From Promethearchaeota archaeon Loki_b32 (GTDB lineage Archaea; Asgardarchaeota; Lokiarchaeia; Sigyniarchaeales; SOKP01): a stretch of DNA of 64,000 nucleotides. The DNA lies in NCBI GenBank assembly GCA_005223125.1, contig NJBH01000011.1, forward strand, positions 43,570 through 107,569, given 5' to 3'. Made by a program: the position numbers and the translations under genes. A model generated the notes under the pieces. That model made no database searches and was not told where the DNA came from. It saw nothing but the letters and a program-made list of their open reading frames with translations. The stretch's first letter is position 1, and each line of letters starts with the position of its first letter. Positions 42,972-52,108 of this stretch are shown in pieces.

Positions 42972-43877
42972 TTATTCTAATTCAATTTTAAACGCTAATT
43001 TTCCATTTTCTAACTTTAGGATTTTAGCTCTACGATTCTTTGCTAAAATCTTGAAAATCTCCTCCAAATCTTCAAGGGGAAGTGTACTAAAATCTTCTTG
43101 TTTTGCTTCTCTTAATTCATATATCATAATAGGTTCGATTTTACCGTTATCATAAGCCCATTTCCATATCTCATCAGACCATACTTCAAGAGTTTTCCAG
43201 TATACTCTTAATCCTTCTTTTTTTTTTGATAACCACTTAGCTTGTTTTTGGCTAATTAATTCTTCAGCAATTTCTATTATATATTGTTCACGTTTGGTGA
43301 AATTTACAAATGGTTTATGTGTAATTACCTCTCTGGTGTATAATATATGAAGAACAGCAAATCTTACATAATCAAAAAGAACTTTTGCCCATTCTGTTTT
43401 CCATGAAATATAATCGTTTTTATTTTTATTTTTATCAGGCATTGTATACATGAATTTTTTCCTTTCTTCCTCTATCCATGGATAAGCAGTTAATAAATTT
43501 TCATAAGCAGTTAATTTTTTTTCTAATAAACCCTTTTCTCCGATAATTTCTTCTTCTAGAGTTTGCAATTCGGCTTCAACTTGCTCTGCATGCTTTTGAT
43601 AAACTTTATGATCGATCTCTCCTAATTTTGAAGATAATATATCTTCTAGTTTTTCAAATTGATCTTCTATATAATCTAACTCAGTAGATTTAATTTCATC
43701 TTCTTTTATGATTTGCTTTTGAGCAGCTTCTATTTCTAACTGTTCTTTTTCTTGTTTTAATTTTCTTAATCTTGCTAATTCTTTCCTTAATTCCTCTAGC
43801 TCTTTTTCAGCTTGTTCCTTAACTTCTTTAGGAATTTCTGTAGATTTTTCTCTCTGTCTTTCCATAGTAATCCTCAA
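42972..43877 (-). CDS. vps25: ESCRT-II Vps25-like protein with N-terminal coiled coil
   Basis: WAKVLFDY, YWKTLEVWSDEIWKWA...IYEL match the Vps25 winged helices. Confidence 0.8.
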   Translation of the reverse strand: MRITMERQREKSTEIPKEVKEQAEKELEELRKELARLRKLKQEKEQLEIEAAQKQIIKEDEIKSTELDYIEDQFEKLEDILSSKLGEIDHKVYQKHAEQVEAELQTLEEEIIGEKGLLEKKLTAYENLLTAYPWIEEERKKFMYTMPDKNKNKNDYISWKTEWAKVLFDYVRFAVLHILYTREVITHKPFVNFTKREQYIIEIAEELISQKQAKWLSKKKEGLRVYWKTLEVWSDEIWKWAYDNGKIEPIMIYELREAKQEDFSTLPLEDLEEIFKILAKNRRAKILKLENGKLAFKIELE

Positions 43878-43883
43878 AATTTA

Positions 43884-45095
43884 TTATACTTCTCCGAATT
43901 CCTCTGCCCAATCGTTATATTGTTTTAGTAGTGCTGGATGTGTCATTGGTTTTACTTTTTTGAGTGTTTTTTTGAAATCTTTCAAATTAATATCTCTAAC
44001 ATTAACTTCTTTATTAGAATCTTCTAAAAGACCACTCATATCTAATTCACGTACTGGCAACATTATTACCTCACGACATACATTTGCAATATCTCTACCG
44101 GAATAACCCTCACTTCTAACAGCTAATTCAACGTAATCTTCATTGGATAATGCTGAATCTACTCCTTCAGTATGAATCTTAAAGATTCCAGCTCTAGCTT
44201 TTAAATCTGGAAGAGGAACATGCACTCTTTTTTCAAATCTACTTAACATAGCATTGTCTATATCCCAAGGGCGATTTGTTGCCCCTAATACCAATAATAT
44301 TTTGTCATGAGTTGATTTCAATCCTTGTATTTCACTTAATAACTGTGTTTTAACTCTTCGCTCGCCACCACTCTCAGAACCCTCTCCCCGTTTTGTTGCT
44401 ACTGAATCTATTTCATCCATAAATATTAAACTAGGTGCTTTTAATCTCGCAACTTTAAACAAAGAACTGATTAATTTTTCACTTTCACCTAACCATTTGC
44501 TTAGTAAATCAGCAGAAGATGCACTAAAAAATGTAGCATTACATTCAGTTGCAGCTGCTTTCGCTAATAATGTTTTACCACATCCAGGAGGTCCAAAGAG
44601 TAATATCCCGGACCAAGGCCTTCTCGCTCCGGTAAATAATTCTGGTTTTGCTATTGGTAAAACTATAGCTTCTCTTACAGCTTGTTTAACATTTTCTAAA
44701 CCTGCAATATCATTCCATTTTACATTAGGAGATTCTGTAACAATTGTACCCGATATCATATCTATGAGTTCTTGTTCTTCGGATGATACTCCAGCTTCAG
44801 CTTTCGATTTATCATCACCCCCTGACACACCCGGTCTTCTAGAGAGTCTCGCGCTTCTAGGTCCACCAAGCTGAGATTTCAATATTTTTGCGCGATCAAC
44901 ATATTCTTCGATATTTTTTTGACATAACATTCTCATCTGAGGGTTCTTATTATATTTCATAAATTGCATCAATATTTCAGCTGCACGTTGATATTTGTTT
45001 ATAGCTTGTCTGTATTTGCCCTGACTATCTAGAGCAACTGCCTCCTTTGCTGTCGATACAGCATATTGATAAAGTTTCGAATCTACCGACGACAT
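43884..45095 (-). CDS. vps4: Vps4 AAA+ ATPase (MIT plus AAA)
   Basis: MIT AVALDSQGKY..A; PNVKWNDIAGL, GPPGCGKT, SKWLGESEK, FMDEID, ATNRPW. Confidence 0.93.
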   Translation of the reverse strand: MSSVDSKLYQYAVSTAKEAVALDSQGKYRQAINKYQRAAEILMQFMKYNKNPQMRMLCQKNIEEYVDRAKILKSQLGGPRSARLSRRPGVSGGDDKSKAEAGVSSEEQELIDMISGTIVTESPNVKWNDIAGLENVKQAVREAIVLPIAKPELFTGARRPWSGILLFGPPGCGKTLLAKAAATECNATFFSASSADLLSKWLGESEKLISSLFKVARLKAPSLIFMDEIDSVATKRGEGSESGGERRVKTQLLSEIQGLKSTHDKILLVLGATNRPWDIDNAMLSRFEKRVHVPLPDLKARAGIFKIHTEGVDSALSNEDYVELAVRSEGYSGRDIANVCREVIMLPVRELDMSGLLEDSNKEVNVRDINLKDFKKTLKKVKPMTHPALLKQYNDWAEEFGEV

Positions 45096-45113
45096 GATAA
45101 CTTTATAAAAACA

Positions 45114-45191
45114 ATTTTATTATTTATAGCTATTCTAATTTAACAATCAGTAATATTAATAATTCTAACCGTATATATCAAATTTACTCTT
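45114..45191. repeat. Left copy of 78-bp imperfect direct repeat
   Basis: 71/78 identical to 49223-49300; starts 19 bp upstream of the vps4 start. Confidence 0.9.
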
Positions 45192-45395
45192 AGAAAGAAA
45201 GATAAAATATTCAACATTTATATTATTGACATATTTTAAATATAATGGAAGAAAAAGAAAAGAATTTACGCATGAACCTTTCTAGAATTCTGTTGTCAAT
45301 TTAACAATTAAGTTTTATGGAATTATAAAATGTAATTATATATTTATATTTTTGAATTACCTTTATTATTTTAAAAGACAAATATAAGAAGTGAA

Positions 45396-46586
45396 ATGGT
45401 AGAGTTCAAGATCAATAAATATATTACATTAAAACTTGAATGGAAAAAGACTAATATCTACGTAAATAACAGACTATTTAATCAGTGTAAATACATATTA
45501 ACAAGAAAAAAGATCTCTGATTTAGAAGATCTCCTTGAAATGGAATCAGTCGATGAATTATCGGAAAGTTCAATAGACTCTTTTTTAGAGAATTCATGGG
45601 ATGACCTTAGGGATTTTGAGCCTGAATTCATAGACATCCCAATAGAAACAAGATTCTGGGTTCATTGTTCAAATTTACAAGTCTGGGCAGAAAATAATTA
45701 TGATACAAGATTACTTCATAGTAACCTCTCATTTCCCTTATTGAAGCGATTGGCGAAAGCAGGTGATCCTACTGCTAAAATGGTATTCAAAGAAGAAATT
45801 GCTAAAAGATTTGCATCAAACTACCCTTCAGTGATAAACTTTCTCACTGAAAAGGGGTATGATGAATATTTGAGTAGGGAAGAGTTTTTTAATAGTATTC
45901 TTTCTAATAATCAAGCCGATACTATGATTGAATTAGAAAAAGTAGTGAATATGAGATACAGTCTGAATGATACTGTCAATAAACCACTTAGGGAAGATAA
46001 TGGAGAAGAAGTATACTTTGCTATAGATAATAGAAATGTCGTAGAACTTGAACTTTATTACAATGAAACACATCCAGAATATTTATTAGATTTAATTCAT
46101 AATTTCAATAAGCTAAAAGTACTATATTTATATCTTAGTGAATATACTGAAATATTTCCTAAAACATCACGGAAGTTCAATTCTTTGTTAGAATTAAAAG
46201 TTGCGATATATGGTTGGACAAAGATTCCAGATATATTTGATAAATTTCCAAATTTGAAGACTTTAGAGATTCATGGAGAAGGAATTGTGAATGAACTAAA
46301 TTCAATTACCAAACTCAAACAATTAGAAACCTTAAAACTGATCTATGTGAATATAGATAAGCTTCCAGACTCATTAGGAGACCTAAAATCGTTAAAAAAT
46401 TTATTAATAAGTAATACAAATATTGATACTCTTCCAGATTCAATTGGAACCTTAAAAAATTTATCTTATCTTAGGCTATTAAGAAACCCGTTAAAAGAAT
46501 TACCGAGTTCAATAAAAAATCTAAAAAATCTAAAAAAAATAAAGTTAGATAAAAATCTTCTAGAAAATCTCAGACAAGAGAAATAA
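45396..46586 (+). CDS. Leucine-rich repeat protein with Loki-type N-terminal domain
   Basis: FKINKYITLKL...FWVHCSNLQVW...LLHSNLSFPLLKRL; LPDSIGTLKNLSYLRL repeats. Confidence 0.85.
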   Translation: MVEFKINKYITLKLEWKKTNIYVNNRLFNQCKYILTRKKISDLEDLLEMESVDELSESSIDSFLENSWDDLRDFEPEFIDIPIETRFWVHCSNLQVWAENNYDTRLLHSNLSFPLLKRLAKAGDPTAKMVFKEEIAKRFASNYPSVINFLTEKGYDEYLSREEFFNSILSNNQADTMIELEKVVNMRYSLNDTVNKPLREDNGEEVYFAIDNRNVVELELYYNETHPEYLLDLIHNFNKLKVLYLYLSEYTEIFPKTSRKFNSLLELKVAIYGWTKIPDIFDKFPNLKTLEIHGEGIVNELNSITKLKQLETLKLIYVNIDKLPDSLGDLKSLKNLLISNTNIDTLPDSIGTLKNLSYLRLLRNPLKELPSSIKNLKNLKKIKLDKNLLENLRQEK

Positions 46587-46836
46587 TCTAATCCTCAAGA
46601 AAGATATCTCTTATCGTCTTATCGTATTTAGTAGTCCCATTCTTGATTTTATGCATATAATTTCTTATAATAACTACTTTTGAATTCGTAAAATTAATTC
46701 TATAATAATATTCTCTATATATTATTCAATCTAATAATTTGATTTATAAATTAATTTAATAGAAAAGTTAAACTCTCAAAAAATATATCAAAATTTATTA
46801 ATTTTTGTTTAAAAAGTTTGGATTGGATACTATTCT

Positions 46837-47610
46837 ATGCTAAGTAAAATACAAAAAATTACTCTGGGTACTAAAGAGTGGGCAGATAGCAATGTAAACT
46901 GCTACTTAGGCTGTTCAAATAATTGTCGATATTGTTATGCGAAAAAAATGGCAATAAGATTTAATAGGAGGACTGAGGATACGTGGAGAATAATGATCCC
47001 TAATCAAAAAAACATTAAAAAAGGGTATGCTAAGAGAAAAGGGAGGGTCATGTTCCCCAGTTCTCATGATATTACATATGAAAGTTTAGAAGGCTGCATT
47101 ATTGTATTAGAGAAACTTTTAAATGCAGGAAACGATGTGTTGATTACTACTAAACCTAGATTAAAATGTATTAAAAAGATTTGCAGGCTTTTTTTTAAAA
47201 AAAAAGAATTAATCCAATTTAGGTTTACCATAACTTCACTTTCAAATGAACTATTAAAATTTTGGGAGCCCTTTGCTCCTTTATTTGAGGAAAGAATCAA
47301 TGCATTGAAATTTGCATTTAATAAGGGTTATATGACTAGTGTCTCAATTGAGCCCTTTTTAGATGAAGACCCTTTTACCTTGGTCGAAACTCTATATCCT
47401 TATATAACTGAATCAATATGGATTGGGAAAATGAATTATGTTTTCACCAAGAATATAAAGTCTAAATTCATCAATTTTTATAACCATATTGAAAAGATAA
47501 ACTCTAAAGAAAATCTGTTAAGGATCGTAAAGAGAGCAAAAAATTATGATGAATCTATTATTAGAATTAAGGATAGCATTCATAATTTTTTAAATAAAAA
47601 CAATATATAA
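46837..47610 (+). CDS. Radical SAM protein (DUF5131/Gp37Gp68- or SPL-like)
   Basis: EWADSNVN...GCSNNCRYCYAKKMA, ITTK, VSIEP, WIG. Confidence 0.8.
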   Translation: MLSKIQKITLGTKEWADSNVNCYLGCSNNCRYCYAKKMAIRFNRRTEDTWRIMIPNQKNIKKGYAKRKGRVMFPSSHDITYESLEGCIIVLEKLLNAGNDVLITTKPRLKCIKKICRLFFKKKELIQFRFTITSLSNELLKFWEPFAPLFEERINALKFAFNKGYMTSVSIEPFLDEDPFTLVETLYPYITESIWIGKMNYVFTKNIKSKFINFYNHIEKINSKENLLRIVKRAKNYDESIIRIKDSIHNFLNKNNI

Positions 47611-47785
47611 TAATTAAATCAAGATTTAAAATATTTAACAAAAAATTACTAAACTTATTATCATTGGGAAATTAAAACAATTATTATTTTTAAATTCTAT
47701 AAAGTAAAAATCGAATCTTTATGTCGGTTTTTGTCGGTTTTTATGTAATTTATACAATAATTACCTAATAATTTTATTTATAAAG

Positions 47786-48814
47786 GTGTTCCTTAACATT
47801 ATTCATCAAATGGCTAATACTAAGAAGAAAACCAATTTTGAATTTCATCTGCAAAATATAAAGAAGTTAGATAATGATTGGAGATTTTTAGAAAAAATTC
47901 CAAATTTTCCTTATAAAAATCCAAATTTTTACTATTCTAGGGGTGATAATAGCGGATGGTGGATGGCTATCAAGCAAACCGCTTTCAGAGGATATATAAC
48001 CGCATATCTCTCAATTTTGGGGAAAGTAAGTGACCGGAAACTTTATTTTATTGATCCTTTAAGTAGTTATGGTTTGGTTAGAGTTACGAAAAATCAGGGA
48101 AAAGATAGATTTACATTCCCTGGTACTTCTATTAATGCTGAATTAATATCTAATCGTAAAAAAAAAGGATTTGATGGTTTTTATATAAATGATTTAAAGC
48201 CTACAGAAAGAAAAATATTAAACGAGAGAATGTTGTCAATTAAAAATTATTATAAAAGTAATAGTGAAATCAACATTGACTTAAGTAACGATAGAATTGA
48301 TTCTAATAAATGGCTCATTGATACAATGAGAGTTATCGATGAGGAAAATAGTTTTTATCATTGTTTGATCATAATTGATAATCAAGCTATGGATATCTAT
48401 TATGATACTATTCAGCAAGTTAGAGAAATCAGTGAATTTAGTGATGTTATAATTACTTTTCAAGACGCTAATATTGCTCGAGCAGTTCCCTCAGGAACTC
48501 CAAAGATTAAGAAGTTTTTTGGATGTGAAATTCCCACTGACACAAAAGATCCAAGAAAAGTCTTATGTAATATATATTGTTCCCAATTAAGCAAAGTTAA
48601 TTTACCTAAAATTCAGAAAATGAAAGTGGCTTCTGAAAATAAATTTTACTATACATTATTATTTTGTTGTCGACAGAAAGCCACAGGAAAATGGTTTAAA
48701 ATAATCAAATATTACAATGATGAAAGATTTAAGAACTTCACAGATAGAGATCAAAAAAGAATGTGGGACATTAAGGAAGGTAAACAGCTAAGTCTTACTC
48801 ATGATTGGAATTGA
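47786..48814 (+). CDS. Three-Cys-motif partner (TcmP)-like methyltransferase-fold protein
   Basis: K...YITAYLSIL, LYFIDPLSSYG, PGTSI, IIID, YYTLLF, KQLSL tail; next to a DUF5131-like radical SAM gene. Confidence 0.6.
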   Translation: MFLNIIHQMANTKKKTNFEFHLQNIKKLDNDWRFLEKIPNFPYKNPNFYYSRGDNSGWWMAIKQTAFRGYITAYLSILGKVSDRKLYFIDPLSSYGLVRVTKNQGKDRFTFPGTSINAELISNRKKKGFDGFYINDLKPTERKILNERMLSIKNYYKSNSEINIDLSNDRIDSNKWLIDTMRVIDEENSFYHCLIIIDNQAMDIYYDTIQQVREISEFSDVIITFQDANIARAVPSGTPKIKKFFGCEIPTDTKDPRKVLCNIYCSQLSKVNLPKIQKMKVASENKFYYTLLFCCRQKATGKWFKIIKYYNDERFKNFTDRDQKRMWDIKEGKQLSLTHDWN

Positions 48815-49016
48815 AACGTTTTAATGATTTTTTACTATTATCCTCCTTTTTATGTTATGAAATTTGTATTATAATGTAAAAAAAATTTCGATTAAAGAGT
48901 ATCATATGACAATTTTTCCTATTTATTATTAAAATCTAATTCCCTTATTTATTAAATCATTAAAAGAACTTCATAAAATAAATATAACATTAAGTTCATT
49001 CTTATTATTTGAGATA

Positions 49017-49223
49017 ATGCATAAAATTTTCTTTCGGAATCAAGGTCAAGGAAAAGAGATCTCATTATCTGAAGATCATCTTCTAAATATACTTATCAAT
49101 GAGTTTCAATTTGCTAATGATATTGAAATTAACTTATGTTTGTTCGGGAATCTAGGGAATGAACTTTTTCTTGACCCTCACCTAGAAAGGAAATTAGAAA
49201 ATGAAATTAAAGATAGAAGCTGA
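49017..49223 (+). CDS. Small hypothetical protein or gene remnant
   Basis: 68-aa ORF whose stop abuts the right direct repeat. Confidence 0.3.
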   Translation: MHKIFFRNQGQGKEISLSEDHLLNILINEFQFANDIEINLCLFGNLGNELFLDPHLERKLENEIKDRS

Positions 49224-49300
49224 TTTTACTATTTATAGCTAATCTTATTTAACAATCAGTAATATTAATAGTTTTATCAGTATATATCAAATTTACTCTT
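49223..49300. repeat. Right copy of 78-bp imperfect direct repeat
   Basis: 71/78 identical to 45114-45191. Confidence 0.9.
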
Positions 49301-49392
49301 TAAATGAATGAGAATAAAGAATGGTCTCCAAAAAATTAAATACCCATCATAGCATTTATATATTATATAATTACTAATTAGATTTGATAAAT

Positions 49393-50028
49393 ATGGGTTT
49401 TCTAAAGGATATTTCAAAATGGTTGTCTGGTGGTAAGAGTAAAGATGGTCCCCGCTCTGCTGCGATTAAATTGAAAGTATTTAATAAAAGATTGATGAGA
49501 CAAACAAAAAAATTAGAAATTAGCGCAAAACTTGCAAGAGATAAAGCCGTAAATTTAAGAAAACAGGGAGATTTAGACGGTTCAAAATTTCATGCGAGGA
49601 ATTACCTTCAAGTAAAGAAGCAAGCGAGAGCTGTGGAAATGTTTCGCACCAATTTGGAAGGGCTCCTTTTCAAATTAGAACAAGCAAATGCAGTTAAAGA
49701 CGTATCTCAAATCATGACAGGTATTGCCCAGTCTCTAGCAACTTTAAAAAGCCAGCTTTCGGTGCCACAAATGACACAATTGATGAGTCAAATCGACATT
49801 GACATGGAAGAATTTGCCGTTACTGCTGATATCGCAACAGACGGTATGGATAGTATCAGTATTGATACTGCTGTGATGGATTCAGACGTATCTGAGGTTC
49901 TCGGAGAAATTGATGCCGAAATCCAGGTAGAAATGGGAGTTGCTTTACCAAGTGCGGCTTCTGGTGCTTCTGATGAGAAGATAGCTGAATTAGAGAAAGA
50001 ATTAAAGCGATTGAAATCTGACGAATAA
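49393..50028 (+). CDS. ESCRT-III Snf7-domain protein (Vps2/24/46-like)
   Basis: Basic helical N-half, acidic C-half, C-terminal MIM1-like IAELEKELKRLK; start placed at MGFLKD. Confidence 0.88.
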   Translation: MGFLKDISKWLSGGKSKDGPRSAAIKLKVFNKRLMRQTKKLEISAKLARDKAVNLRKQGDLDGSKFHARNYLQVKKQARAVEMFRTNLEGLLFKLEQANAVKDVSQIMTGIAQSLATLKSQLSVPQMTQLMSQIDIDMEEFAVTADIATDGMDSISIDTAVMDSDVSEVLGEIDAEIQVEMGVALPSAASGASDEKIAELEKELKRLKSDE

Positions 50029-51935: not shown

Positions 51936-52001
51936 ACAATTAGAATTTCTAAGAATCATTAAATTTTAATTTTTTAATATATTCTTATTATTATTAAAAA
52001 T

Positions 52002-52073
52002 GCGCTCTTAGTATAGTGGTTAGTATGCCAGGTTGCCAACCTGGCGACCCGGGTTCAATTCCCGGAGGGCGCA
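52002..52073 (+). tRNA. tRNA-Gly(GCC)
   Basis: Acceptor GCGCTCT/AGGGCGC, anticodon arm CCAGG-TTGCCAA-CCTGG, T arm GGTTCAATTCC. Confidence 0.95.
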
Positions 52074-52108
52074 TTTTAAACTATTAATCTAAAATTAAGG
52101 AGTCTAAT

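Follow-up and report, generated by a model that had tools for sequence, protein, structure and literature searches.

Why do vps4 and the ESCRT-III gene of Promethearchaeota archaeon Loki_b32, arranged head to head (vps4 on the minus strand, the Snf7 family gene on the plus strand), stand 4288 nt apart, when the closest relatives mostly keep 177–205 nt between them? The gap holds four genes and is bordered by a direct repeat, which raises the question of what was inserted there and by which route. The locus lies in a 64,000-nt stretch of DNA, analysed as a whole and called here the window, and reads from left to right as follows.

42972–43877, minus strand: ESCRT-II (Vps25-like) gene, to the left of vps4 and arranged with it as in an operon (Pfam PF05871, E 9.8e-10)
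43884–45095, minus strand: vps4, with MIT, AAA and Vps4_C domains (Pfam PF00004 5e-40, PF04212 8e-15, PF09336 1e-5)
45096–45113: 18 nt from the vps4 ATG to the left repeat; native leader or TSS region of vps4, which aligns without a break to the empty site of relatives
45114–45205: left repeat copy; homology to the empty site is firm to 45191 and weak for 45192–45205
45206–45395, plus strand: non-coding left end of the cargo, present once in the genome; an AT-rich, TATA-like sequence precedes the LRR gene
45396–46586, plus strand: leucine-rich-repeat (LRR) protein, 396 aa, from a large paralogous family of the genus (Pfam LRR_14, 4e-16)
46837–47610, plus strand: three-Cys radical-SAM-like protein, 257 aa, DUF5131-like (Pfam Radical_SAM 1e-7, DUF5131 1e-5)
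47786–48814, plus strand: TcmP-like partner protein, 342 aa (PADLOC PDC-M41A, 7.7e-12)
49017–49223, plus strand: orphan ORF, 68 aa, whose stop codon abuts the right repeat
49223–49314: right repeat copy, running on into the remaining native spacer; near the genus consensus
49315–49392, plus strand: ESCRT-III-proximal part of the spacer, with the conserved block GGTCTCCAAAAAATTA and a proximal TATA-like block (conservation profile of 48 unique congeneric spacers)
49393–50028, plus strand: ESCRT-III, Snf7 family (Pfam PF03357, 1e-13); the ATG at 49393 is the most likely start, rather than the TTG at 49384, and the start is corrected here

The two repeat copies (45114–45205 and 49223–49314) align without a gap, with 80 of 92 positions identical (87%). 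Realignment of their first 78 nt gives 71 identities (91%), the very figure of the initial annotation of this DNA, and the longest exact run common to both copies is 23 nt. They start 4109 nt apart, and subtracting one such period from the gap leaves 179 nt; collapsing the repeats had been said to leave about 190 bp, and the computed spacer matches those of the closest relatives. The insert proper, from about 45192 or 45206 to 49222, amounts to 4.0 kb. When the left copy was compared by BLAST with the whole 4.13-Mb assembly, a check proposed at the outset, only the second copy was recovered (E 8.8e-26); the remaining matches are AT-rich noise of 24–50 nt with E above 0.002, so that the repeat is neither a dispersed multi-copy element nor a product of chance. 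The left copy carries the vps4 TATA box (about 45121–45130, minus strand) and is changed at four positions that are 80–99% conserved in the genus; the right copy is 97% identical to a copy in the congener G050. Private differences number one in the right copy, at its left end, and four in the left copy, in its right two-thirds.

The empty site is readily found in relatives. A single contiguous match spans vps4, spacer and ESCRT-III in 40 of 53 congeneric genomes, and the match is split, with query ranges that overlap, only in the studied genome (G000) and in G050. All 19 congeners having both genes on one contig show a gap of 177–269 nt, and the gap is short in 60 of the 64 informative metagenome loci and 74 of the 80 genome loci. 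The nearest relative is a metagenome contig, L025, whose vps4 is 97.2% identical at the DNA level: its gap is 180 nt, and its homology to G000 stops exactly at 45191 on the left and restarts at 49223. The comparison with related genomes that the initial annotation recommended thus favours its insertion reading, the uninterrupted spacer being present in those 40 congeners, about 60 metagenome contigs and L025, and relatives being devoid of the four genes at this place. We conclude that the insertion is lineage-specific and the insertion/deletion polymorphism genuine.

Within the spacer, conserved over 48 unique congeneric sequences, the repeat corresponds to positions 22–99 (113), i.e. to the most conserved block, hereafter block 1, which extends from the vps4 TATA box to the motif TATATATCAAATTTACTCTT; both junctions fall in less conserved stretches. 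The repeats copy target sequence and the empty site contains one copy, as expected from an insertion that duplicates its target; the sequence comparisons indicate that the repeat is target-derived and not borne by an element. The duplication of the probable vps4 promoter region, suggested earlier, is likewise recognised in the empty sites of relatives, which hold this conserved core with the vps4 TATA box. The duplicated block stands in front of both vps4 and ESCRT-III, so that both genes retain the conserved core. We infer a promoter function for the spacer blocks, and antisense transcription from the right copy into the cargo is plausible because the TATA box of this copy is intact.

What the cassette carries is host-like: its composition is that of the host and its gene families are host-typical. 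The four ORFs are all on the plus strand and without an integrase, as initially described, no integrase or transposase family being matched in Pfam. The LRR protein yields 39 tblastn segments in its own genome, and the DNA for its N-terminal part has matches of 72–80% identity at many loci of every congener. The radical-SAM-like protein matches PADLOC PDC-M41B (1.4e-6) and NCBIfam rSAM_mob_pairB (1e-11), the latter at 44.5 bits, below the cut-off of 410. The 342-aa protein has no match in Pfam, nor in NCBIfam at E up to 0.1; its homologues at 46–50% identity bear the NCBI name “three-Cys-motif partner protein TcmP”. Neither protein reaches the cut-offs of the curated NCBIfam models for the three-Cys-motif/TcmP pair, and the matches of these adjacent genes to both PDC-M41 models (A 7.7e-12, B 1.4e-6) are weak and partial. 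Paralogues of the two occur on contig C40 of the same genome (78% aa identity for the radical-SAM-like protein, 79% for the TcmP-like one). Among proteins of similar or greater length, the 68-aa ORF has no homologue beyond its own 90% cluster; copies 97–99% identical to it lie in two other assemblies. All four cargo proteins are found together, 97–99% identical, on an independent 13,144-nt JGI contig, and LRR copies 90–95% identical exist in two NCBI assemblies, i.e. this protein diverges by up to 10% aa between assemblies. Judging from these sequences, the cassette is real and established. Its cargo is probably an accessory set unrelated to ESCRT function, possibly related to defence.

Does a dedicated element explain the insertion? 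The Pfam scan reveals no recombinase among the four cargo ORFs, and PF00589 has only three matches genome-wide (contigs C36, C3 and C21), none in the window. The junctions match neither a tRNA nor an Rfam family; the closest tRNA, a tRNA-Gly, is at 52001–52074. A tRNA or gene 3' end as the target of an integrative element is ruled out: the target is an intergenic promoter block. The repeats are no more stable in folding than their shuffled sequences (z +0.8 to +2.0), and contain no hairpin or inverted-arm structure. An integron gene cassette was rejected for want of an attC-type palindrome and an integrase. The list of inverted repeats has no pair at the cargo ends; a transposon or insertion sequence was rejected as well, since the cargo has no transposase family and no terminal inverted repeats and the duplication measures 78–92 nt.

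The spacer has received other insertions. In the metagenome locus L027, on a single contig, one SBBP beta-propeller gene stands between 73-nt repeats of 90% identity that cover spacer positions 30–102. This insert of 1481 nt is essentially the gene alone, with flanks of 33 nt and 68 nt, and the gene starts 33–42 nt past the duplicated vps4 TATA box. In G050 the duplication is 237 nt, and an AhpC/TSA-TPR gene and a B-box-like ORF are found at two contig ends; this insertion is pieced together from two contigs, in a MAG whose contamination is about 7%. L042 and L047 have a serpin, an FMN reductase and an actin fragment in the spacer and lack repeats; their breakpoints are at the same two places as in G000 and L027. 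Compared as att cores, the boundaries agree within about 8 nt between L027 and G000, while the duplication of G050 extends over 237 nt and repeats are missing from L042 and L047. The initial annotation had considered the ESCRT locus as an integration hotspot taking the place of a tRNA. What stands of this proposal is that different cargo recurs in the same spacer, 4 of 64 metagenome loci (about 6% of lineages) having it interrupted. On the other hand interruptions are about equally frequent (3 of 55) at the neighbouring junction between ESCRT-II and the next gene, and similar insertions are scattered over the genome, so that a special hotspot is only weakly supported.

This scattering is seen in a genome self-BLAST: repeat pairs of 50–400 nt, at least 80% identical and 0.2–15 kb apart, are direct in 63 cases and inverted in 2. 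In 27 of the pairs one copy is largely in an ORF and the other non-coding, and about 16 of these 27 ORF copies are gene 3' ends. The radical-SAM-like/TcmP-like pair of C40 is itself enclosed by 74-nt repeats matching the 3' end of a neighbouring gene, and this segment is absent from relatives; an example on C21, compared with relatives, offered no clean empty site.

The two flanks of the cassette do not have the same history. Between G000 and L025, 10 of 155 four-fold sites differ in vps4 (6.5%) versus 18 of 76 in ESCRT-III (23.7%), and DNA identity is 97.4% on the left flank versus 90.3% on the right. This jump places a recombination breakpoint at the insertion. The figures are those expected if one flank has the history of the donor and the other that of the recipient, although in this generally mosaic locus an unrelated recombination, in the lineage of G000 or of L025, could also account for them; vps4 of L029 is itself a mosaic, with a 3' half 95.5% identical and a 5' half 80.7% identical.

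Altogether, the islet is most likely the product of ordinary, integrase-free recombination and not a dedicated mobile element. We lean, with little more than even confidence, towards an accessory gene islet imported from a diverged congener by one-sided homologous import (homology-facilitated illegitimate recombination), or by a single crossover closely akin to it. The 4.0-kb islet would have entered the divergent promoter region through host recombination, without an integrase of its own. The incoming DNA would have comprised, in this order, the cargo, the spacer from position 22 onwards and ESCRT-III; homology would have anchored its ESCRT-III end, and its other end would have been joined illegitimately to the variable spacer immediately beyond block 1. 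The two repeats of 78–92 nt would then be two versions of the native block 1: the left copy that of the recipient, staying with vps4, and the right copy joined to the remaining spacer and ESCRT-III. In the close alternative, a re-circularised fragment carrying block 1 would have integrated by a Campbell-type single crossover. Selection would keep only insertions whose junctions lie in poorly conserved spacers and which leave block 1 before both genes; such selection on junction position would lead the independent L027 insertion to duplicate nearly the same segment. Recombination between the repeats would permit precise loss of the cargo, hence presence/absence polymorphism among close relatives. 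We infer which side acted as the anchor, what the donor was, and that selection had a part in fixing the boundaries. The two copies differ at 7 of 78 nt, versus 3–5 expected from the 3.7–6.5% silent-site divergence to L025. The divergence of the LRR protein between assemblies, up to 10%, suggests that the insertion may be older than the G000/L025 split, the empty site of L025 being then a secondary loss. As to the DNA involved, no donor sequence was found in which the illegitimate junction and its microhomology could be read. Of the two routes proposed by the initial annotation, the homology-driven one fits.

Taken by itself, the Campbell-type crossover is unlikely. A circle from a related cell, either a re-circularised fragment or an excised loop, with the cargo and one block 1, would have recombined with the chromosomal block 1 and generated two hybrid copies. 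Such an event yields direct target repeats of any length without integrase, imperfect wherever donor and recipient differ, and the private changes are distributed as a crossover near the left end predicts. However, both flanks should then have remained those of the recipient; the ESCRT-III flank is 3–4 times more diverged from L025 at silent sites, so that a second event is needed, besides an earlier one bringing the cargo beside block 1 in the donor.

We regard a staggered break as improbable. The two strands would have been nicked at points some 78 nt from each other, perhaps where the DNA melts just downstream of the divergent TATA boxes; the long overhangs so formed would have been joined to foreign DNA and filled in, leaving a perfect 78-nt duplication that later decayed. 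The 9–13% divergence of the repeats is also compatible with such an old duplication formed in situ, and the divergence of the LRR protein suggests that the cassette is old enough for decay. Both junctions are shortly downstream of outward-facing TATA-like boxes, the boundaries of the two independent insertions nearly coincide, and L047 and L042 are broken at those same two places. Selection explains this agreement equally well, the boundaries being variable spacers; moreover the 237-nt duplication of G050 has quite different ends, the discordance of the flanks is left unexplained, and we know of no archaeal target duplication of this length (~78 nt), which also counts against the break.

That the 75–78-nt core of the vps4/ESCRT-III promoter could be a genuine docking site of Lokiarchaeia, where a trans-acting recombinase or promoter-associated breaks repeatedly insert single genes or small cassettes and duplicate the core, is a long shot; if true, accessory genes end up under copies of cell-division promoters. 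In its site-specific form we think it very improbable: block 1 would be att-like, the ESCRT promoter a dedicated docking site, and a recombinase encoded elsewhere in the genome or by a helper element would mobilise the cassettes in trans. A segment of roughly 75 nt is indeed duplicated around unrelated cargo in both G000 and L027, the length of the repeat is within the range of archaeal att sites, and the cargo resembles the content of defence islands. But no recombinase is present in or near any cassette, and the copies, 87–91% identical with at most 23 nt in an exact run, form no inverted arms or hairpin. G050 has other boundaries, L042 and L047 have no repeats, the L027 insert leaves no room for element-specific ends, and repeat-flanked insertions elsewhere in the genome use unrelated targets. 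The att-like option of the initial annotation is thus disfavoured, the three repeat-flanked insertions of the spacer differing in cargo and one of them in boundaries. Finally, a misjoining of the cargo into the ESCRT locus through similar AT-rich sequence is hardly credible: the genome is a MAG of 71 contigs with 4.6% estimated contamination, but 23 identical consecutive bases at most are too few to mislead an assembler at both ends, composition and gene families are those of the host, the four proteins recur together on the independent 13-kb JGI contig, and L027 has an analogous structure on one metagenome contig.

How does the locus compare with known systems? By its cargo, it recalls PDC-M41, a candidate defence system of PADLOC, or the DUF5131-TcmP three-Cys-motif pair: matching genes are adjacent (46837–47610 and 47786–48814). 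The difference is that the matches are weak here and the NCBIfam models not reached, PDC systems being themselves only candidates; a literature search found no paper on anti-virus activity of PDC-M41.

By its structure, and under the import from a congener that we prefer, the islet is close to the scars of homology-facilitated illegitimate recombination, or gene-end “displacement”. Bacterial cases of this process have been documented (de Vries & Wackernagel 2002; Prudhomme et al. 2002; Meier & Wackernagel 2003, as cited in PMC5361080), namely in Acinetobacter, S. pneumoniae and P. stutzeri, and PMC5361080 invokes it for displaced gene arrays, those of Vibrio T6SS effector-immunity genes; displacement of Rhs C-termini is comparable. 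In all, integrase-free foreign DNA lies beside a conserved anchor, the recipient version is left as a diverged direct repeat, the flanks have unlike histories and the cargo at one place varies by lineage. Here, however, what has been duplicated is not a gene end but a bidirectional promoter block without coding function, and the host is an Asgard archaeon, in which neither DNA uptake nor the mechanism is known to occur.

Campbell-type insertion-duplication, e.g. by suicide plasmids, also brackets the insert with direct target repeats whose recombination restores the empty site exactly, but here there is no vector or replicon, the repeats are 9–13% diverged and the flanks discordant. Integrase-borne archaeal elements with att repeats (SSV-type, pNOB8-type, tRNA-targeting islands, and the aloposons of Heimdallarchaeia, which carry giant genes and integrate at tRNA genes; PMC8813620) have direct repeats of tens of nt that duplicate host sequence and preserve the interrupted function. 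They differ from our case, where integrase and tRNA target are both absent, the repeats are imperfect and the occurrences have no element backbone in common. Finally, the flexible genomic islets of marine bacterial and haloarchaeal populations show the same presence/absence and replacement of cargo between conserved genes within a species or genus, with surface, repeat or defence-type genes as cargo; the site here is distinct in being a regulatory spacer of ~180 nt, common to two cell-division genes, whose core block has been duplicated.

In Asgard archaea, vps4 and ESCRT-III form the hallmark eukaryote-like module for membrane scission, the layout of which is usually taken as fixed. In the window, however, the two divergent genes are 4288 nt apart and four genes stand between them, enclosed by two copies of a direct repeat:

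42972-43877, - strand: ESCRT-II (Vps25-like), gene call confirmed
43884-45095, - strand: Vps4, gene call confirmed
45114-45205: left repeat copy
45396-46586, + strand: LRR protein, gene call confirmed
46837-47610, + strand: radical-SAM-like protein, gene call confirmed
47786-48814, + strand: 342-aa protein, without Pfam match
49017-49223, + strand: 68-aa ORF, gene call confirmed
49223-49314: right repeat copy
ATG at 49393, + strand: ESCRT-III, Snf7-family, followed by a Ras-like GTPase and a PfkB kinase

The ORF finder begins ESCRT-III at TTG 49384 (window 49384-49395), but alignments to relatives begin at the in-frame ATG 49393, which is the more likely start. The repeat copies align without gap, with 80/92 identical positions, and 71/78 over the first 78 nt, as read in the initial annotation, which had also asked for further copies. 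Searching the whole 4.13-Mb assembly (a MAG of 71 contigs, in which the window is C64:43570-107569) with the left copy returned the right copy as the sole real match (E 8.8e-26), the rest being short AT-rich noise. With two copies only in the genome, a dispersed repeat is ruled out. We also note, 2 kb downstream of ESCRT-III, a tRNA-Gly(GCC) at window 52001-52074, which is no part of the cassette and uninvolved.

Comparison with relatives establishes that the cassette is an insertion. In all 19 congeneric genomes that have vps4 and ESCRT-III on a single contig, the two genes are head to head, 177-269 nt apart; ESCRT-III lies at most 269 nt from vps4 in 74/80 genome contigs. A 979-nt probe taken from a congener and spanning vps4, the spacer and ESCRT-III finds a contiguous match in 40/53 other species genomes of the genus; the match is split in two, with overlapping query ranges, only in the source genome and in G050, another congener. 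Of 80 metagenome contigs with a vps4 relative, 64 were informative; the gap is 167-304 nt in 60 of them. The nearest relative, contig L025 (JABUBL010006881.1), whose Vps4 and ESCRT-III proteins are both 97% identical to those of the window, has a gap of 180 nt; its homology with the window stops exactly at 45191 and restarts at 49223, and subtracting the repeat period (4109 nt) from the gap of the window leaves 179 nt. The insertion with promoter duplication proposed from the sequence is thus right, since relatives have the empty site and the repeat is a block of the spacer; both the empty site and other cargo, which the initial annotation suggested looking for, were found. Besides, in two congeners the contigs (G001:C396 and G058:C95) terminate at the same point, about 64 nt inside ESCRT-III, which could reflect another rearrangement or a repeat-induced assembly break; G001 has no second ESCRT-III match at E up to 1e-10.

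To place the repeat we aligned 48 unique congeneric spacers (Vps4 at least 84% identical), in collapsed coordinates counted from the vps4 start codon. The spacer is unusually well conserved and organised in blocks:

positions ~26-99: block 1, from the TATA box facing vps4 through the motif TATATATCAAATTTACTCTT
positions 100-113: variable stretch
positions 114-141: block 2, including GGTCTCCAAAAAATTA
positions 150-172: block 3, a TATA-like box preceding the ESCRT-III ATG by 25-40 nt

The segment duplicated in the window covers positions 22-99 (to 113 with a weak tail), i.e. block 1, with both ends falling where conservation is lower. It follows that the repeat comes from the target and does not represent an element end. 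The right copy stays near the genus consensus; the left one has retained both TATA box and 3' motif and carries four private changes at positions conserved at 80-99%. The junctions match no Rfam family and no tRNA, on which ground a ncRNA or tRNA target is rejected, and the repeats show no more folding than shuffled sequence does, with no attC-like structure. Genus-wide, the spacer (45096-45113 plus 49223-49392 here; loci L025-L184) is much better conserved than the adjoining coding DNA: it is 93% identical to that of the congener G005, whose genes are only about 78% identical. The three blocks, including GGTCTCCAAAAAATTA and TATATATCAAATTTACTCTT, are on this pattern of conservation candidate regulatory sites of the Lokiarchaeia ESCRT genes.

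The spacer is used repeatedly as an insertion site. In metagenome contig L027 (Ga0209427_10042710, L027:608-2234) a single gene, encoding a secreted SBBP beta-propeller protein, lies between two 73-nt copies, 90% identical, of spacer positions 30-102, nearly the segment duplicated in the window; the insert has no space for anything besides this gene. Its GTG start is 33-42 nt past the duplicated vps4-type TATA box, so that it probably borrows the vps4 promoter. As no derived bases are common to the left copies, nor to the right copies, of the two loci, we reject a common ancestry of their duplications and treat them as independent, although gene conversion could mask such an ancestry. In G050 (JAZGEW01), contig C44 (L022:6832-8513) carries vps4, a complete spacer copy and an AhpC/TSA-TPR gene at the contig end, and contig C21 (L023:5213-6173) a B-box-like ORF, 51 nt of the vps4 5' end, a second spacer copy and ESCRT-III. 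The duplication would total 237 nt (the whole spacer plus 51 nt of vps4), the join across separate contigs being inferred; the cargo is unrelated. A recent transfer between the source genome and G050 is not needed to explain their 97% identical spacer copies, because the spacer is generally far better conserved than coding DNA. Finally, two related metagenome contigs (L042:2100-8000 and L047:3112-6808) hold between ESCRT-III and vps4 a serpin, an FMN reductase and an actin fragment (202 aa, matching the C-terminal part of actin only), inserted at about spacer positions 97-112, with no repeats detected around the insertion. L042 has two further genes, one with a PRTase-CE domain, and in both contigs a small zinc-ribbon gene (double-zinc-ribbon in L047) stands between the promoter and vps4. 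Elsewhere the gap reaches 781 nt in L072, and the upstream sequence available in L093, L099, L151 and L155 contains no ESCRT-III.

Repeated use of the spacer does not make it a special hotspot. The junction of ESCRT-II with the next gene is interrupted about equally often (3/55 loci, versus 4/64 for vps4/ESCRT-III), so that the ESCRT-dedicated hotspot put forward in the initial annotation is unsupported; the ESCRT-III/Ras junction, with 5 syntenic loci only, is too few for a control. The boundaries in the window and in L027 nevertheless agree at both ends within about 8 nt, which random junctions would be unlikely to produce (roughly 1%). As these boundaries coincide with variable stretches of the spacer, selection against damage to the conserved blocks is enough to explain the agreement.

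The cassette itself is real and established. All four cargo proteins are found together, 97-99% identical, on a 13,144-nt JGI contig, and two NCBI assemblies have copies of the LRR protein at 90% and 95% identity, the former on a 5,176-nt contig together with the 68-aa ORF; an NCBI MAG contig of 69,448 nt also carries cassette protein. Its occurrence in other assemblies, with the empty site of L025, amounts to a presence/absence polymorphism among close relatives. The divergence of the LRR copies suggests that the insertion is not very young; the empty site of L025 may thus be ancestral, or result from a precise repeat-mediated loss, or have been imported as an empty allele. The LRR protein is a member of a large family of paralogues in the genus. 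Radical_SAM and DUF5131 match the radical-SAM-like protein weakly; it also hits PADLOC PDC-M41B (1.4e-6), and its 342-aa partner hits PDC-M41A (7.7e-12); homologues of the partner at 46-50% identity bear the NCBI name 'three-Cys-motif partner protein TcmP'. The pair does not reach the NCBIfam models, and a PDB sequence search gave no match for the TcmP-like protein; the pair is a candidate module for defence or nucleic-acid modification. The 68-aa ORF, an orphan, has no relatives beyond its own cluster. No cargo relatives were found in viral contigs, and nothing in the cargo ties its function to ESCRT.

Direct repeat pairs are frequent in this genome: self-BLAST gives 63 direct against 2 inverted pairs with copies 50-400 nt long, at least 80% identical and separated by 0.2-15 kb. 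Both copies are non-coding in 20 pairs, 16 pairs are coding paralogues, and in 27 one copy is largely inside an ORF and the other non-coding, the ORF copy being the 3' end of the gene in about 16 of the 27. Four pairs (on C48, C38, C21 and C2), with repeats 90-99% identical, each enclose one main gene, of unrelated functions: a Kre9/KNH Ig-like protein, a GNAT acetyltransferase, a PEMT-like protein and an MFS transporter. The C21 example (152-nt repeats, 99% identical) showed no clean empty site in relatives, because its flanking genes are non-syntenic there and its cargo has a 90% paralogue on C25. At C40:36188-39896 (L021:6189-9897), a paralogue of the radical-SAM-like/TcmP-like pair, at 79% DNA identity, is flanked by 74-nt direct repeats, 84% identical, which are the 3' end of a neighbouring 236-aa gene; the segment is absent from several congeners.

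How the cassette entered can be approached from its flanks. On the side of vps4 the DNA is 97.4% identical to L025 over 2.8 kb, against 90.3% on that of ESCRT-III, and divergence at four-fold sites is 10/155 (6.5%) in vps4 versus 18/76 (23.7%) in ESCRT-III, both proteins being ~97% identical. This abrupt change across the insertion argues for a recombination breakpoint in or at the cassette; the 9-13% divergence of the repeat copies is within the range between the two flank lineages. Mosaicism being general at this locus, the argument is suggestive, short of proof: in metagenome contig L029 (Ga0114921_10012546) the 3' 600 nt (half) of vps4 is 95.5% identical to the window and the 5' 600 nt 80.7%, which indicates recombination inside the gene. 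The simplest single event covering all observations would be a one-sided homologous import from a diverged congener: incoming DNA of the form 'cargo - spacer from position 22 - ESCRT-III' would have been anchored through homology at its ESCRT-III end, with an illegitimate joint immediately beyond the recipient's block 1 at the other. A close alternative, a Campbell-type single crossover of a re-circularised fragment, fits the arrangement of the private differences in both repeat copies but requires a second event for the discordant flanks. The repeats may otherwise derive from a long target duplication made in situ and later decayed; silent divergence to L025 then predicts 3-5 differences per 78 nt, and 7 are seen. 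The att-like element first envisaged is unsupported, as a family scan finds no recombinase or transposase in the cargo (the three PF00589 matches of the genome are all outside it) and the repeats are not structured.

Thus a shared ESCRT promoter can be split by accessory genes if a defined conserved block remains before both genes. What is duplicated differs between variants (78 nt in the window, 73 nt in L027, the whole spacer in G050, nothing in L042 and L047), and these natural variants map the dispensable and the probably regulatory parts of the spacer, providing testable candidates for ESCRT regulation in organisms not yet genetically manipulable. The locus is also a clear case, controlled by empty sites, of integrase-free gene gain and loss leaving repeat scars in Lokiarchaeia, and as such bears on how these genomes acquire genes.

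Aloposons, which carry giant genes and integrate at tRNA sites (PMC8813620), are unrelated to the cassette. One-sided import, as the simplest single event, would be of the type of homology-facilitated illegitimate recombination, documented in bacteria by references given in PMC5361080. The vps4/ESCRT-III cassette adds a case to an event type already known, the insertion-duplication made by recombination; what is notable is its location, and what the natural variants show of the conserved blocks of the ESCRT promoter.
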